Under the pieces are notes generated by a model that saw nothing but the letters and a program-made list of their open reading frames with translations, did no database searches and was not told the origin of the DNA. This document shows, piece after piece, positions 25,842 through 32,499 of a DNA stretch of 64,000 bases. Position 1 is the first letter of the stretch; each line of letters begins with the position of its first letter. The stretch is taken from assembly GCA_963676615.1 (NCBI GenBank), contig OY781092.1:129413-193412 (forward strand). The letters run 5' to 3'. The DNA comes from Candidatus Cloacimonadota bacterium (GTDB lineage Bacteria; Cloacimonadota; Cloacimonadia; G963667145). Position numbers and translations under genes: made by a program.

Positions 25842-27851
25842 ATGTCACATCGTTTAATATTGGGAATAAAAATGCGAACAAGAAAATTTATACTGTTTTT
25901 ACTTGTTTTTTGGACTTTCGGTCTTTTGCAGGCTCAGTACCCTTTTGAAAGTGGTAGCAATGAGCCGCTTAGTGTCGTAATGTATGCAGACAAGATTGCC
26001 AGGGGCTATGAGGTTCGCCTCGCTTCGACTTTGTCGTCTTATTGTGAGAGAGGAACTTATGAGGTTGATGTAACTGTTAACCTGAAGCCAAGGCAAGCTT
26101 CGAGTGGTCAGCTTGACATTGTGTCTTCCTCTTCTGCAGATTTGTCTGACGGCATAGTGATGCCAGGAACTAACGGCAGGTTCGTGAACGAGTTTATCGA
26201 TGAGTTTGCGAATGAGAGCCAGCCAGCGCAACCGATGATGTCTTACGGCAATCCGCTACAAGGCTCTGTTGGGTCTGGAAATCCAAGCGATTACGAAATT
26301 GAAAATGTTGTAATAAATGTGATGCTCGATGCTTCGGATTACACTCCAGAAGATGTCTCTTTTATAGACGAGTTGGTGAGAATGAAGTCTGGCGTCGATG
26401 TTTATCGTGGAGATGCGGTAAATGTGTCGCTGGTGAAGTTCACCAATCAGAAGCAAAAAATGCTGGAAGAGGCTCAAAAAGCTGAAGAGCTTAAAAAGAA
26501 GCAGGAAGAAGAGGCGAGAAAAGAGGCAGAGGCGGAAGAGGAGAGAAGGAAAAGGGAAGAGGCTGAAAATCAAACGCCGCCAGAAGAAGAGTCGAATTTC
26601 TTGTTTTACTTGATAATCGGATTGATTGGGCTGTTTGTCCTTATTGGACTTATTGTTTCACTGTTCTTTATCTCCAAAAGACACGCTGCGGCAGACGCGA
26701 ATATGGTTCAGCCGAAAGTAAATTTCCCTCGCTATGATGAACAGTTTGATAGCTTGATGCAAGAGATGCGAGAGTTAAAGAAAGTTAATTTGACTCCGAA
26801 GCCAGAGCGAATGGAAATTGCAGAATATAAAAGACTTCGCTCGTTTGCAATCAATAAATTTTTAGCAGAAGGAAAAAATGTTTCTATCGTTTTGCGTGGC
26901 TGGGTTGATAGTGGCGGAGACGAGGGCGTCGATAAGGCGTCTAAGTTGATAAAGGCGATAGATGAGAACTTGCTTGATCTTTTAGAAGAAAATATTGCTC
27001 ATGACGATTTTAAACTTTTGTCGTGGAATGTTCGTAATATGGAAGAGCTTGATACGAAGACGAAGCTAGAAGCTTTGCAAAACTTTAAAAATGCTTGGAG
27101 CTCTTTGACTGTTACCGATGATAGCGACGCTGATTCTGGAATGTTTGGTTTCTTGAATGCAATGTCTGTCGAACAAATACGGCAAGCTCTCAAGGGCGAG
27201 TCCGATGGTGTTCAGGCGTTGGTAATTACGCAAGTGGCTGCCGACAAAGCGTCAGAGATTTTGGCGTCCTACTCTTCGGAGCAACGCTCTGCAATTATGG
27301 GAAATATGGGCAAGCTTGGCAAAATCCCAACTTCTATCTACAAAGAAGTTTCTAGCAGGCTGGCTCGAGAAGCTCTTAAGATGCGTGGAATGGAATATGT
27401 TTCTTCGGATGGTGCTGGCAAAATGCTGGAGATTTTGGACACACTTTCTACAGCACAGCAAGAAGAGTTTATCGACGAAATTTCTAAGGCTGATGTAAAC
27501 ACTGCAGAACAAGTGTTGAAGTATTTCATAACATTTGAGAGTTTGGATGAATTAGAAGACGATATTTTAGTGAAAGCTATGCAAAAAATGGATAGAACGC
27601 TGTTGTCTGCCGCTTTGGTTGGCGTAGATGGTGTGAAATCTGATAGAATATTGTCGAATATTCCAGAAAGAATGCGTGAGATTGTAAAGTCTGAGCTTGC
27701 GGTGAATGAAAATAAACTTAAGCCTGACGATGTCGAAAAAGCTAGGCGAAAGATGATGGCGATTGTTAGAAAGGAAATTAAAGAAGCTGGCGGTCGAAAT
27801 ATTGGGTCGTCTGAATCTTCGGAAGAGGAAGGGGTGAGCGATGAGTATTAA
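25842..27851 (+). CDS. membrane protein: periplasmic FliF-RBM3-like region, one TM helix, cytoplasmic FliG-like domain (FliF-FliG-like fusion)
   Basis: Signal/TM at N-terminus (alternative ATG at 25872). NVVINVMLDAS...FIDELVRMKSGVDVYRGDAVNVSLVKF resembles the conserved FliF C-terminal ring-building motif (...VAVVVD...GFD..RGDSV.V...F). Lys/Glu coiled coil, then TM helix FLFYLIIGLIGLFVLIGLIVSLFF. C-terminus ILSNIPERMREIVKSELAVNENKLKPDDVEKARRKMMAIVRKE aligns with the FliG C-terminal torque-helix region. Confidence 0.55.
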   Translation: MSHRLILGIKMRTRKFILFLLVFWTFGLLQAQYPFESGSNEPLSVVMYADKIARGYEVRLASTLSSYCERGTYEVDVTVNLKPRQASSGQLDIVSSSSADLSDGIVMPGTNGRFVNEFIDEFANESQPAQPMMSYGNPLQGSVGSGNPSDYEIENVVINVMLDASDYTPEDVSFIDELVRMKSGVDVYRGDAVNVSLVKFTNQKQKMLEEAQKAEELKKKQEEEARKEAEAEEERRKREEAENQTPPEEESNFLFYLIIGLIGLFVLIGLIVSLFFISKRHAAADANMVQPKVNFPRYDEQFDSLMQEMRELKKVNLTPKPERMEIAEYKRLRSFAINKFLAEGKNVSIVLRGWVDSGGDEGVDKASKLIKAIDENLLDLLEENIAHDDFKLLSWNVRNMEELDTKTKLEALQNFKNAWSSLTVTDDSDADSGMFGFLNAMSVEQIRQALKGESDGVQALVITQVAADKASEILASYSSEQRSAIMGNMGKLGKIPTSIYKEVSSRLAREALKMRGMEYVSSDGAGKMLEILDTLSTAQQEEFIDEISKADVNTAEQVLKYFITFESLDELEDDILVKAMQKMDRTLLSAALVGVDGVKSDRILSNIPERMREIVKSELAVNENKLKPDDVEKARRKMMAIVRKEIKEAGGRNIGSSESSEEEGVSDEY

Positions 27852-28989
27852 AAAAAGCCTACTCTGGCTTCTATTGATTTTCTCTTTTTCTTCGCTTTTT
27901 GCTCAATTTGAATACAATCAGTTTTCAAATATGAGTGCCGTGGGTTCTTATCCTCGTAGTGACAGATCAGAAGTCAGGAATATTGCTAGAATTATGATGA
28001 GGGTGAAAGAGGCGGTGCTTAATTTCCCCTTGGGAGTAAAAAGGGTTGCTGTTTATAGGATTAAAGCTGATCGCGACGCTATCTCTCTTGGAATGGTGCG
28101 TTTTGTAAAATCGAAACTTGAGCAGGTGCTTTTGGACAATAAAACCATTGAGTTGGTGGTTGTCCCAGAGTTCAATTTGGCAAGAGTGAAAATAACGGAC
28201 ACCTCTTTTAGCTATGTGAATTCCGCGCGCTCTTTTGCGGAGCTTCGCCAATTGGGCGAAAAATACGACATTGATGCTTTTATCGAAGGAACTTGCACGC
28301 GTAGTGCTTATGGAGATATTCTGCTGTCGCTAAAAATGGTTAGCAACAAAACAGGCGAGATTATTTGGTCAAAAGCTTTTATCGAAGGTCCTAACAACGA
28401 CAAAGATATTGAAACACCGAAGCAATATGTCCTTGACTTTAATGTGGGATTTTATACGGTGAACGAATATAAGAGCAGTGGTGTTTCTGTTTTTGATAGC
28501 GAATACGGCGGTAGCAGTGCAAATATCGTGAGGATGATAGATTATCGGTTGGGAATTACTCGCCGTCAAAACTCTAATTTCTCTTTTGCGAATGTTATGA
28601 TGACCTTGACAGGAGGCTTGTCGATTATTAACTGTCAACTCAGTTTGGAGAATAATATTGAAGGGTTTAACGAACTTTCTACAGCTTTCTTGGGATACGC
28701 AGGTGGTGGTGTGATGACAAAGTATTTCAAAAAAGACAGTAAGGTAACAACAACAAAAGAAAATTATTGGTTTAAGCCTTATTTTAAGGGCAATTTTTAC
28801 ATACCGATTAACTATTCTGGAAGTTTTTTGAGTTTAGATTTAGGTGGCTCATCTGATTTTACAGAAGATATCGAAGTTGGAGCAGGCATTGGCATTATTC
28901 CATTTGGAAGAAAATTGGAAAAGAGCCAGTCAAGTTATATAGAGTTTGGAGCGGTAAAATATGAGATTAGTTTTAGTTATAATTTCTAG
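27841..28989 (+). CDS. secreted protein with N-terminal FlgP/CsgG/LpoB-like signature and aromatic C-terminus (possible OM barrel)
   Basis: Signal peptide. KRVAVYRIKADRD...FVKSKLEQVLLD...ELVVVPEF... plus GDILLSLKMVSNKTGEIIWSKA fits the AV..F......L...vveR......GAD.vl.G.i...rl.dv.TgeI.w fold signature. Ends ...ISFSYNF. Overlaps flanking genes, consistent with an operon. Confidence 0.35.
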   Translation: MSIKKSLLWLLLIFSFSSLFAQFEYNQFSNMSAVGSYPRSDRSEVRNIARIMMRVKEAVLNFPLGVKRVAVYRIKADRDAISLGMVRFVKSKLEQVLLDNKTIELVVVPEFNLARVKITDTSFSYVNSARSFAELRQLGEKYDIDAFIEGTCTRSAYGDILLSLKMVSNKTGEIIWSKAFIEGPNNDKDIETPKQYVLDFNVGFYTVNEYKSSGVSVFDSEYGGSSANIVRMIDYRLGITRRQNSNFSFANVMMTLTGGLSIINCQLSLENNIEGFNELSTAFLGYAGGGVMTKYFKKDSKVTTTKENYWFKPYFKGNFYIPINYSGSFLSLDLGGSSDFTEDIEVGAGIGIIPFGRKLEKSQSSYIEFGAVKYEISFSYNF

Positions 28990-29617
28990 CTTCTTTTTGC
29001 TTTCAGGTTGTTCTCTTTGGAATAAATATTTTTCTAAAGATAGCGCTCAGGAGAGCAGAATTACAGAGCAAGAGGCGGTTAAAGCCTCTTCTGGAGCGGC
29101 AACAGTTGATCAAGAAAGAGGGCTAGGAGTTAGTGACGGGACAAAAAAAGAGACGACAGTTATCCAGCAAAATCCTATCCGTCCACAAAAAAACGAGATT
29201 CTAATTAAGTATCGTAACAAATCTTCGGAAGTTATTTTGAGTCTTGATCCAAGAGACAATAATGTGCAAATAGATGTTTCAAAAGCAAATCCAGGTGGCG
29301 AAACTGCCAATAATTTGGAAGCGAATTCAGATTTCTCTTACGATGTTGGGCAAGAAAATGACGACTCTGGAGAAACGGAGAGCGATTTGTTGGCGCAAGC
29401 TCAGAACAAGTTTTATTCTGGCGACTATCAAGCGGCTCTAAATCTGATAAACAGTTCTTTGGGCAAAAGACCAACAGCTAGAGCGTATGCACTCAAAGGG
29501 AGCATCTATTATATGCTGGGCAACTTGGCTTTGGCTCGAAAAAACTGGGTGAATTCGTTGCGTTTAAATTCTAATGTCCAAGGTGTTAGGCAAATGTTAA
29601 ATAAAATAGGGTATTGA
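28961..29617 (+). CDS. TPR/Sel1-like repeat lipoprotein
   Basis: Lipobox LLSGC. C-terminal TPR-like repeats (YQAALNLINSSL...AYALKGSIYYMLGNLALARKNW). Confidence 0.5.
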   Translation: MRLVLVIISSFFLLSGCSLWNKYFSKDSAQESRITEQEAVKASSGAATVDQERGLGVSDGTKKETTVIQQNPIRPQKNEILIKYRNKSSEVILSLDPRDNNVQIDVSKANPGGETANNLEANSDFSYDVGQENDDSGETESDLLAQAQNKFYSGDYQAALNLINSSLGKRPTARAYALKGSIYYMLGNLALARKNWVNSLRLNSNVQGVRQMLNKIGY

Positions 29618-29618
29618 A

Positions 29619-30416
29619 ATGGTCGGTTCTATAAGTTCTTTTATCGCTTTTATTCTTACTTGTCTAATAGTTTTACTTACAATTACTTCTGCAACATCAA
29701 ACTGGCAGGTTTTTGTCAACTCTGCAAGTATTTTGATAGTTTTGGGTGGAACGCTTGTAAGTGAGTTTATTGCTCGTGGGTTCAGAGAAACTTTGGGGTC
29801 TCTTGTTTATATGCTTAAAATTATGTTTAAGCAACCGATGAAAACAAGGCATTTGATCAGAGAAATCGACACTATCAAAAGTTGGGCAGATCGGATACAA
29901 AGTGGTGGCAAGAAAGTTTATGACGAGATTTATTCGGAGGTTACAGAGCCTTTTGAAAAATATGTGTTTTCTATTTTGTCAACGGGGTATTCGGTAGAGG
30001 AGTCCAAAGAGTTTATCCAAAACGAAATTCAAAGAGAGCTTGAGATAAATGAGCGAAGAGCCGAAATTTTGAGCAGTTTGGGCGGCTCTGCACCTGCCTT
30101 TGGTATGTTGGGAACTTTGATAGGTTTGGTGATTTTGCTTAGCCAGTTAGACGATCCATCAAAAATTGGTCCTGCAATGGCGGTTGCTTTGATAACAACA
30201 TTTTATGGGCTGATTTTAGCCAGAGTTTTCTTTATTCCTGGAGCAAATAAATCTACTGCAATTTCTGACTCAACAATGTTTCGCAAACAAATGATTTTGG
30301 AGGGAGTTAGTCTTATTATGCAAGAAAAGTCCTCTTTTTATGTAGAAGATTATTTGAGCTCTTTCGTTGAAAAAAACGTTAAGAAAGAAGATATTAGTTC
30401 TGATAGTTCAATCTAA
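29619..30416 (+). CDS. motA: MotA/PomA-family stator channel protein
   Basis: Four TM segments arranged TM1-TM2, ~100-aa charged cytoplasmic loop, then TM3-TM4. TM3 has the conserved Pro (SAPAFGMLGTLIGL). TM4 is IGPAMAVALITTFYGLILA. Confidence 0.65.
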   Translation: MVGSISSFIAFILTCLIVLLTITSATSNWQVFVNSASILIVLGGTLVSEFIARGFRETLGSLVYMLKIMFKQPMKTRHLIREIDTIKSWADRIQSGGKKVYDEIYSEVTEPFEKYVFSILSTGYSVEESKEFIQNEIQRELEINERRAEILSSLGGSAPAFGMLGTLIGLVILLSQLDDPSKIGPAMAVALITTFYGLILARVFFIPGANKSTAISDSTMFRKQMILEGVSLIMQEKSSFYVEDYLSSFVEKNVKKEDISSDSSI

Positions 30417-30442
30417 TTTTGTTTGATTGAAGAGGAATAAAG

Positions 30443-31099
30443 ATGAAATTTCAAAAGAAGGAACCTAAAAAGATTGATGAGTCATGGATGATGACTTATT
30501 CCGATTTGGTTACTTTGCTTTTGTGTTTTTTCGTGCTTTTGGTTTCGATGTCCACAACAAATATGGGAATGTGGCAAGAGTTTAAGGAAGGGTATCGTTC
30601 TGAAATAGAAGCGCAGGAAGAAGATTTCTCTACACCTTTGTCGAGAATAAAAGATGATCTTGACTCGATGTTGTTGGACGAAAGAATGGCTGGAATTGTT
30701 TCGGTGCGACTAAATCGTTCTTCGATTACCATCAGCATTTTGTCCGACGCTCTCTATCGCACAGGCGAGGCGCAAATTATTCAAAAAAATATTAGCATTC
30801 TCAAAAAAATTGGTAATTCCATAAAAGCTATTGAGTATTACGACCCTAAAATTGATATTGAAGGACACACCGATGATGCTCCAATTCATACCTCTAGATT
30901 CCCTTCGAACTGGGAACTTTCTGTGGGCAGAGCATCAAATGTTGTGCGCTATTTCATTTCTCAAGGGATTCCACCTGAGCAGATGAAAGCCGCAGGTTAT
31001 GCCTATATCAAGCCTTTGGCGCCGAATAGGGACGCCGCTGGTCACCCAATTCAAGCTAACCGAGACCTTAACAGACGGATTGTCATTGAGGTGCACTAA
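30443..31099 (+). CDS. motB: MotB/PomB-family stator protein with OmpA-like peptidoglycan-binding domain
   Basis: N-terminal WMMTYSDLVTLLLCFFVLLVSMS contains the conserved protonatable Asp and closely resembles the PomB/MotB plug-TM region. C-terminal OmpA-like motif (GHTDDAP...NWELSVGRASNVVRY). Confidence 0.7.
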   Translation: MKFQKKEPKKIDESWMMTYSDLVTLLLCFFVLLVSMSTTNMGMWQEFKEGYRSEIEAQEEDFSTPLSRIKDDLDSMLLDERMAGIVSVRLNRSSITISILSDALYRTGEAQIIQKNISILKKIGNSIKAIEYYDPKIDIEGHTDDAPIHTSRFPSNWELSVGRASNVVRYFISQGIPPEQMKAAGYAYIKPLAPNRDAAGHPIQANRDLNRRIVIEVH

Positions 31100-32499
31100 T
31101 CTCGTTGGCTGAGTTTTTCCAGCTCTTTTTTCACCTCACGCATAGATTTCGGGTTTACGAAGACGGTTTTCTGATTTTTGTAATTTACTTGCCCTAATCT
31201 TCCTTTGCGGATTTTCCACACATAGCGGATAGCTGTGTAATCTACAGCCACTTTTCCCGAATGCTTGGCTTTGGAATAGTAGGCGGCGAGGCTTGCGGCA
31301 ATCTCCAAAATTTTTTGCGGAACATTTTTTTTGTAAGGGTTGAGGATGACGATATGCGAGCCTTTTATCGCCCGCGTGTGAAACCACAAATCGTTTTTTC
31401 CCGCGACACTGCAGGTGATGGTGTTGTTTTCGGCATCGTTTCTTCCGATGACAATTTTTAGGTCGTCGTCTATTTTGATCTGTTTAAAAGATTTTTTTTC
31501 GTTTGTTTTCGCTTTTTTGGGCAGAAAAATTTTGGACTTATTTTCATCAAGCGGTTTGTTTTTCAGGGAGTTAATCTCTGCTTCTTTGATTTTTATTCTG
31601 TTTTCAACGATTTTTTTGCCGCTGAGAGCTTTTTTGTATTTTTTGAAATAGTAGGCGATGTTTTGACTGGGCGAGAGCTCTTTTTTTAGCTCAATTTTGA
31701 TGTTTGGCAGAGCGGCATCAAAGTAGTTGGTGAGGCTGATTTCGCCCATTCCAGGCGAAATTTTGTGATGAGCAGATTTGAGAAGCTCGCCAGCCATTTT
31801 CCAATACTCCATTTTGCTGTAATCGCCAAGCACTCTCTTGAGCGCCGTTAGTTTTTTTTCCGCTTTGGTAATCTCTTTTTCTTGCTGTTTTTGCTGCTTT
31901 TTTTTGAAGATAACGACTCTTTTCAAGTGGATATGGTTGTAAAAAAAATGCTCCAAATAGGCGTTTACAGAGTCGAAACTGTAGTCGCCATCGTGCCAGG
32001 GCAAAGGGTGAAAGCAGTAATTTTGCGTGTTTTGATTGCTGGGCAAAGTGTATTTTTGTCCGGGCAAAATCTGCCGCTGCGGATTGTCGGCAAAGGTGAA
32101 GATTTTTTTGGCGAGCACAATTTTGTCGCCTTCCAAAAAGATAATGTTTTGTTTGCCGGGGATTAGCTCTACGACGATTTTTAGGTGTAAAAGTTCCCCA
32201 TAAATCGACTTTTTTTCGAAAGAAAACTCCACGATTCTGTCGCAAGTGGGCGTTTTGATCTCCAAAAGAGCCGCGTTTTTGAAAAGGTTAATAATCCCAG
32301 AAAAAGTCGGAGCGAACTCCAAAATGTCGTCTTGCGAAAAAAAGCAAAATCCGTCGTTTCCGCAGAGATTTAGCTGCAAAAAGAGCGGAGTTTTGGCGAA
32401 AGTGATGCGATATTGGTCGCTAGATTTTTCTATTGATTGGAATTTCAAAAATTGTGGCAGAGGCTTGCGGCACCACTGGGCGATGGTCGAATAGTTCAT
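31096..32499 (-). CDS. NFACT-family protein (FbpA/RqcH-like) with C-terminal DUF814
   Basis: C-terminal DLWFHTRAIKGSHIVIL...AASLAAYYSKAKHSGKVAVDY matches DUF814. Preceded by a coiled-coil region. Confidence 0.55.
   Translation of the reverse strand: MNYSTIAQWCRKPLPQFLKFQSIEKSSDQYRITFAKTPLFLQLNLCGNDGFCFFSQDDILEFAPTFSGIINLFKNAALLEIKTPTCDRIVEFSFEKKSIYGELLHLKIVVELIPGKQNIIFLEGDKIVLAKKIFTFADNPQRQILPGQKYTLPSNQNTQNYCFHPLPWHDGDYSFDSVNAYLEHFFYNHIHLKRVVIFKKKQQKQQEKEITKAEKKLTALKRVLGDYSKMEYWKMAGELLKSAHHKISPGMGEISLTNYFDAALPNIKIELKKELSPSQNIAYYFKKYKKALSGKKIVENRIKIKEAEINSLKNKPLDENKSKIFLPKKAKTNEKKSFKQIKIDDDLKIVIGRNDAENNTITCSVAGKNDLWFHTRAIKGSHIVILNPYKKNVPQKILEIAASLAAYYSKAKHSGKVAVDYTAIRYVWKIRKGRLGQVNYKNQKTVFVNPKSMREVKKELEKLSQRD

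Follow-up and report, generated by a model that had tools for sequence, protein, structure and literature searches.

Five open reading frames, all on the + strand, form an operon within the 64-kb stretch of DNA that was analysed (the window), and all five were recovered where the sequence-only reading had described co-directional, overlapping or abutting genes (Table 1). The first three genes overlap successively by 11 and 29 nt, and gaps of 1 and 26 nt separate the remaining ones, so the arrangement reads as operon-like. An AT-rich leader of 243 bp lies upstream of the operon, where a sigma-70 promoter scan gave 12 matches against 11.8 expected, which is not above chance. The hairpin and T-run that follow gene 5 probably mark the end of the operon.

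Table 1. Features of the five-gene operon (positions are those of the window)
Feature	Position	Strand	Remarks
Gene 1, rotor-like fusion protein	25842..27851	+	669 aa; probable true start 25872
Gene 1 signal peptide, MRTRKFILFLLVFWTFGLLQAQ	25872..25937	+	stands in place of canonical FliF TM1, RBM1 and RBM2
Gene 1 split ring-building motif, FliF RBM3 type	25968..26435	+	alpha-beta-[insert]-beta-alpha-beta
Gene 1 long charged helix	26448-26567	+	precedes TM helix
Gene 1 single TM helix	26598..26690	+	FliF TM2 equivalent; family profile aligns through FliF 440-559
Gene 1 FliF-C-terminal-like helices and FliG N-terminal-like domain, cytoplasmic	26736..27131	+	
Gene 1 FliG middle domain	27171..27383	+	EHPQ (FliM-binding motif) reduced to Glu: ESDG here
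Gene 1 FliG C-terminal (torque) domain	27477..27782	+	torque helix 27669-27722
Gene 2	27841..28989	+	382 aa; signal peptide first
Gene 2 periplasmic domain, LpoB/PelC/CsgG/TolB-N fold	about 27961-28386	+	predicted model, low confidence
Gene 2 probable outer-membrane beta-barrel	about 28423-28986	+	aromatic end ...SYNF
Gene 3, TPR lipoprotein	28961..29617	+	218 aa; lipobox LLSGC, Cys17 at 29009-29011
Gene 3 TPR repeats (two, C-terminal)	about 29375-29590	+	Pfam TPR_16, TPR_2, TPR_1
Gene 4, MotA/PomA-type stator A subunit	29619..30416	+	265 aa; 4 TM segments, cytoplasmic loop
Gene 5, MotB-type stator B subunit	30443..31099	+	218 aa
Gene 5 plug/TM segment with conserved Asp (...YSD...)	30455-30586	+	MotB_plug PF13677, E 1e-15
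Gene 5 OmpA-like peptidoglycan-binding domain	30755-31042	+	PF00691, E 7e-15
Terminator-like hairpin and T-run	31107..31134	+	8 nt past gene 5 stop codon; consensus scan only

Gene 1 encodes a rotor-like fusion of FliF and FliG elements. Public annotation places its start codon at 25872 (ATG), for a product of 659 aa with a normal signal peptide (MRTRKF...LLQAQ). Behind the signal peptide come a periplasmic domain resembling FliF RBM3, a charged helix, the one predicted TM segment (residues 249-284) and a cytoplasmic part. In the latter, a region resembling the FliF C-tail and FliG_N leads into FliG_M and then FliG_C. The periplasmic domain has the split alpha-beta-beta-alpha-beta motif of FliF RBM3, followed by the TM helix and a tail of the FliG-binding type. 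Its insert of about 65 aa, which bears a family-invariant Pro-Gly ('LPGLP' motif), is much shorter than the beta-collar of FliF, and the domain ends in a conserved RGDxxxVxxxxF. FliG_M (PF14841, E 1.2e-10) and FliG_C (PF01706, E 2.7e-13) both exceed their Pfam gathering scores, and this part has the FliG fold. YscJ_FliF_C is matched below the Pfam threshold (residues 151-200, E 1.3e-3), YscJ_FliF has no Pfam match in gene 1, and the periplasmic domain alone shows weak sequence similarity to FliF (E 0.29). The family profile aligns to an engineered Vibrio FliF-FliG fusion over both halves. These results agree with the FliF(RBM3)-TM-FliG architecture that had been read from the sequence, including a torque helix at the C-terminus.

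The equivalent of Salmonella FliG R281 is Arg in 43 of 44 family members and that of D289 is Glu in 32; gene 1 itself follows both, and carries Ser, Lys and Val at the positions of D288, R297 and K264, respectively. Two of the five classical charged positions (K264 and D288) are not conserved in the family, and the HPQ of the FliM-binding motif is replaced in all 44 members. A conventional FliF was rejected as the identity of gene 1 on account of the single TM helix, the restriction to an RBM3-type domain, the signal peptide in place of TM1 and the missing YscJ_FliF match; a conventional separate FliG was rejected on account of the fused FliF-like part and the replaced HPQ. Gene 1 is an 'MS-ring half plus FliG' in one polypeptide, which joins a secreted RBM3-type domain and a TM helix to a complete FliG with an essentially invariant R281-equivalent Arg.

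Genes 4 and 5 had been proposed to encode MotA and MotB/PomB, and the profile and structure matches bear this out. Gene 4 carries a MotA_ExbB domain (PF01618, E 2.5e-24, 85.9 bits) with four TM segments, Pro173/Pro222 equivalents and a charged loop, and it matches the Vibrio PomA structure 8bri (E 6e-29). Its NCBIfam scores are 141 bits for both PomA and MotP, 29 for TolQ and 17 for ExbB. None of the 35 module MotAs departs from the prolines and channel threonines equivalent to PomA P151, T158, T186 and P199; acidic loop residues are mostly kept, loop charges as a whole are only partly conserved, and the R88/K89 positions are not. Because these two positions and FliG K264 and D288 are not conserved, the interface between gene 1 and its stators differs from the flagellar one. 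Gene 5 combines a plug, a TM segment with Asp and an OmpA-like domain, with PF13677 and PF00691 both passing their cut-offs, and aligns to B. subtilis MotB (6ysl, E 6e-24) across the Asp of ...Y(A/S)D.... The module scores far below the NCBIfam equivalog cut-offs of its flagellar counterparts (FliG, PomA, MotA, MotB), with 141 against 341 for gene 4 (PomA) and 157 against 283 for gene 5, and gene 4 is thus placed in a distinct subfamily. The two products are true stator subunits of the flagellar type, with PomA/MotP and MotB as their nearest counterparts, and they carry every hallmark of ion-coupled function and of peptidoglycan anchoring.

Genes 2 and 3 encode envelope proteins that accompany the other three genes in distant lineages, and each is homologous from module to module. 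Gene 2 matches no Pfam family, and its fold is provisionally of the LpoB/PelC/CsgG/TolB-N type (model pLDDT 49). Of the earlier label 'FlgP/CsgG-like', the CsgG-type fold is provisionally retained; FlgO is matched in 1 of 24 family members. Gene 3 had been likened to MotX as a Sel1/TPR protein. The TPR lipoprotein assignment held, with a conserved segment IxxxYxNxSS...LDP and C17, Y84 and N86 invariant in the family; a specific kinship with MotX was not supported, since the 60 listed of 133 profile matches are generic TPR proteins with no MotX or Sel1 among them, and the Pfam matches are to TPR rather than Sel1.

At E<=1e-30 the family of gene 1 has 70 cluster representatives, a number that rises to 256 at E<=1e-10. 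The top 150 relatives almost all share the signal peptide, a periplasmic domain of about 200 aa, the TM helix and a FliG-like region of about 380 aa. Wherever enough sequence and reliable ORF calls were available, the order from gene 1 to gene 5 is kept (30 loci of 30), with further loci added through precomputed Pfam labels. Since dozens of independent contigs show this order, the arrangement is not due to chance. The loci represent about 14 lineages at <60% identity, with GC of 0.34-0.64, from ocean, freshwater, soil and digesters, and many lineages keep the unit even where identity falls to 17-25%. Housekeeping genes always flank it, and the ±10 kb around more than 30 loci, which represent about 14 lineages, contain no flagellar gene. 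As a positive control, a canonical FliG was found in a full flagellar cluster, between FliH/FliI and a 524-aa FliF that carries both YscJ_FliF and YscJ_FliF_C. In the window, the earlier statement that no other flagellar genes are present was upheld, with no flagellar-family match among the 39 further ORFs (Pfam, E<=1e-5); FliM/FliN are absent from it and from the related loci examined. In six reduced genomes all five reading frames are intact, and dN/dS of 0.03-0.11 for every gene indicates strong purifying selection. The five genes are a conserved unit under purifying selection, apart from flagellar export, rod, hook, filament and switch genes, in keeping with the stand-alone module first suggested.

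The host belongs to the Cloacimonadota (FCB group), not the Fibrobacteres, and has a reduced genome of about 1.57 Mb; it is apparently associated with anaerobic ciliates. The Na+ bioenergetics attributed to it are reflected in a c subunit with an ...ESTGIY... motif, an RnfB-like Fe-S protein and ApbE. An earlier survey had found flagellar gene sets in only 5 of 46 Cloacimonadota genomes. Among 179 clade-2 MAGs, motA occurs in 73 and motB in 71, compared with 30 for flhA, 29 for fliG, 25 for fliF and 23 for fliI. About 40 MAGs have motA/motB without flhA, fliI or fliF, and the argument from this KO table assumes that motA/motB of non-flagellated MAGs belong to the rotor-stator module.

Comparison with known systems places the module near the core of the flagellar motor (FliF MS-ring, FliG and MotA5B2/PomA5B2), with which it presumably shares the principle of a peptidoglycan-anchored, ion-flow stator pushing a FliG ring. 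It differs in having FliF and FliG in one polypeptide, no TM1, RBM1 or RBM2, a short RBM3 insert and no EHPQ FliM site. The loci also lack FliM/N, the export apparatus, rod, hook, filament and P/L rings, and carry in their stead genes 2 and 3, two envelope partners peculiar to the family. A natural FliF-FliG fusion is known from the Chlamydiaceae; it has about 330 aa and two TM helices (Bergeron 2016, bioRxiv 10.1101/023564), with an RBM2-like domain, one further RBM and FliG M only, and is thought to act with the type III secretion system, MotAB being absent (bioRxiv 10.1101/023564). It resembles gene 1 as a natural fusion in a flagellum-less organism with a shortened periplasmic RBM region, whereas gene 1 starts with a signal peptide, has a ring-building domain of the RBM3 type and a complete FliG, and is accompanied by stators of its own. 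A chlamydial-type identity was rejected, as size, TM count, RBM type, FliG extent and stators all differ. Engineered Salmonella and Vibrio FliF-FliG fusions (e.g. PDB 8z4d) assemble into rings (PMC11481574, PMC10941966). Like gene 1, whose profile aligns to the Vibrio construct, they are joined head to tail, but they are laboratory constructs with full-length FliF and a complete flagellar system.

Other envelope machines share single elements with the module. Unlike the Vibrio H-ring (FlgO/FlgP/FlgT), gene 2 bears its own putative outer-membrane beta-barrel, and relative to the T-ring and outer rings (MotX/MotY) the module lacks MotY, FlgH and FlgI and has a generic TPR protein in gene 3. The 5:2 motors (Tol-Pal, ExbBD-TonB, AglRQS-Glt, GldLM/T9SS, ZorAB) provide the background for outer-membrane coupling (PMC12204202). 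In these, too, an inner-membrane ion-driven motor energises the outer membrane or beyond, often with TPR proteins and outer-membrane barrels; the partner in the module, however, is a FliG ring rather than a periplasmic arm of the TolA/TonB/GldM type, and the module contains no TolA/TonB-like gene. A Tol-Pal, Ton or Agl-Glt identity was rejected on the PomA score (141, against 29 for TolQ and 17 for ExbB) and the MotB-type B subunit with its OmpA domain. Zorya was likewise rejected, since PADLOC finds no ZorA or other Zor protein and the ZorB-model match of gene 5 reflects general MotB homology. PelB/PelC have a similar domain set, with a PelC-fold sub-membrane ring domain, an outer-membrane beta-barrel and TPR, although this likeness is structural and drawn from a low-confidence model. 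In the module the PelC-like fold and barrel are both in gene 2 and the TPR in the gene 3 lipoprotein, and no Pel synthase genes accompany it.

We consider it somewhat probable that the five genes specify a self-contained machine which is not a flagellum but is assembled from the torque-generating core of a flagellar motor. Most likely it works in the envelope as a rotary or force-transducing device that does not switch and is probably driven by Na+, and for it we infer ring formation, rotation and output as follows. Gene 1 oligomers would form an inner-membrane ring in the manner of FliF RBM3, displaying a FliG ring on its cytoplasmic face. Peptidoglycan-anchored units of the MotA5B2 type would push this ring through conserved Arg/acidic-loop contacts, with Na+ as the probable driving ion in the Cloacimonadota host. 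RBM1 and RBM2 house the type III export gate, and their absence suggests a ring without an export apparatus; the missing FliM-binding EHPQ motif similarly points to a ring without a switch complex. A machine with neither would turn one way, or deliver torque or force. Output would be kept inside the envelope, where the periplasmic ring and the short 'LPGLP' insert may hand it to an outer-membrane assembly of genes 2 and 3. The fold predicted for gene 2 makes sub-membrane rings in PelC, CsgG and the flagellar outer rings. Candidate outputs are surface movement, moving or gating of an outer-membrane component, export and envelope maintenance.

An unlikely alternative is a force-transducing or export-energising system rather than a continuously rotating motor. 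Here MotAB acting on the FliG-like ring would give limited torque or conformational change to an outer-membrane conduit. Genes 2 and 3 would build this conduit, a pore or ring resembling PelB/PelC or CsgG, which might for example export a polymer or surface protein or, like Tol-Pal or Ton, maintain the outer membrane. The PelC-like assignment comes from a low-confidence model, and in the loci compared the module has no conserved synthase, glycosyltransferase or cargo gene beside it. The stators, moreover, are of the MotA/PomA rather than the TolQ/ExbB type (141 versus 29 and 17 bits), and their partner is a complete FliG, whose sole known role is torque reception.

The operon could instead supply fliF, fliG and motAB to a conventional flagellum, with the other genes elsewhere in the genome. 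Full flagellar sets do occur in about 30 of 179 clade-2 MAGs, the stators are of flagellar type, and the flagellar gene search covered the 64-kb window of a 1.57-Mb genome. This explanation is nonetheless very improbable, given a gene 1 without TM1, RBM1, RBM2 and the FliM-binding motif, conserved partners (genes 2 and 3) that are not flagellar proteins, the absence of flagellar neighbours across the lineages described above, and motA/motB more than twofold commoner than flhA, fliF and fliI in clade 2. A decaying, functionless remnant of a lost flagellum, kept by chance, would fit the reduced host genome and the flagellar relics of other non-flagellated bacteria (Chlamydiaceae FliF/FlhA/FliI; Lysobacter). 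It is effectively refuted by the intact frames and low dN/dS, by invariant key catalytic and interface residues and by the deep conservation of a unit that includes two family-specific partners, and retains a negligible probability.

For the self-contained machine, no published description of such a rotor-stator operon was found in the literature. A broader proposal, plausible if just short of probable, is that the module represents a class of rotary machine not recognised before, ion-driven and spanning the envelope, which many uncultured diderms would possess. With a FliF-RBM3/FliG ring and MotAB stators, it would drive an outer-membrane complex of genes 2 and 3 without type III secretion or an axial structure. 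If its FliG, FliF and MotA branches fall outside the flagellar clades rather than nesting within them, the module would represent a surviving sister or relic of the rotor-stator unit that preceded flagella, and the origin of flagellar torque generation would become open to experiment. As to the carriers, a near-invariant Gln at the predicted cleavage site of the gene 1 signal peptide (Q22, in at least 90% of family members) hints at the FCB group.

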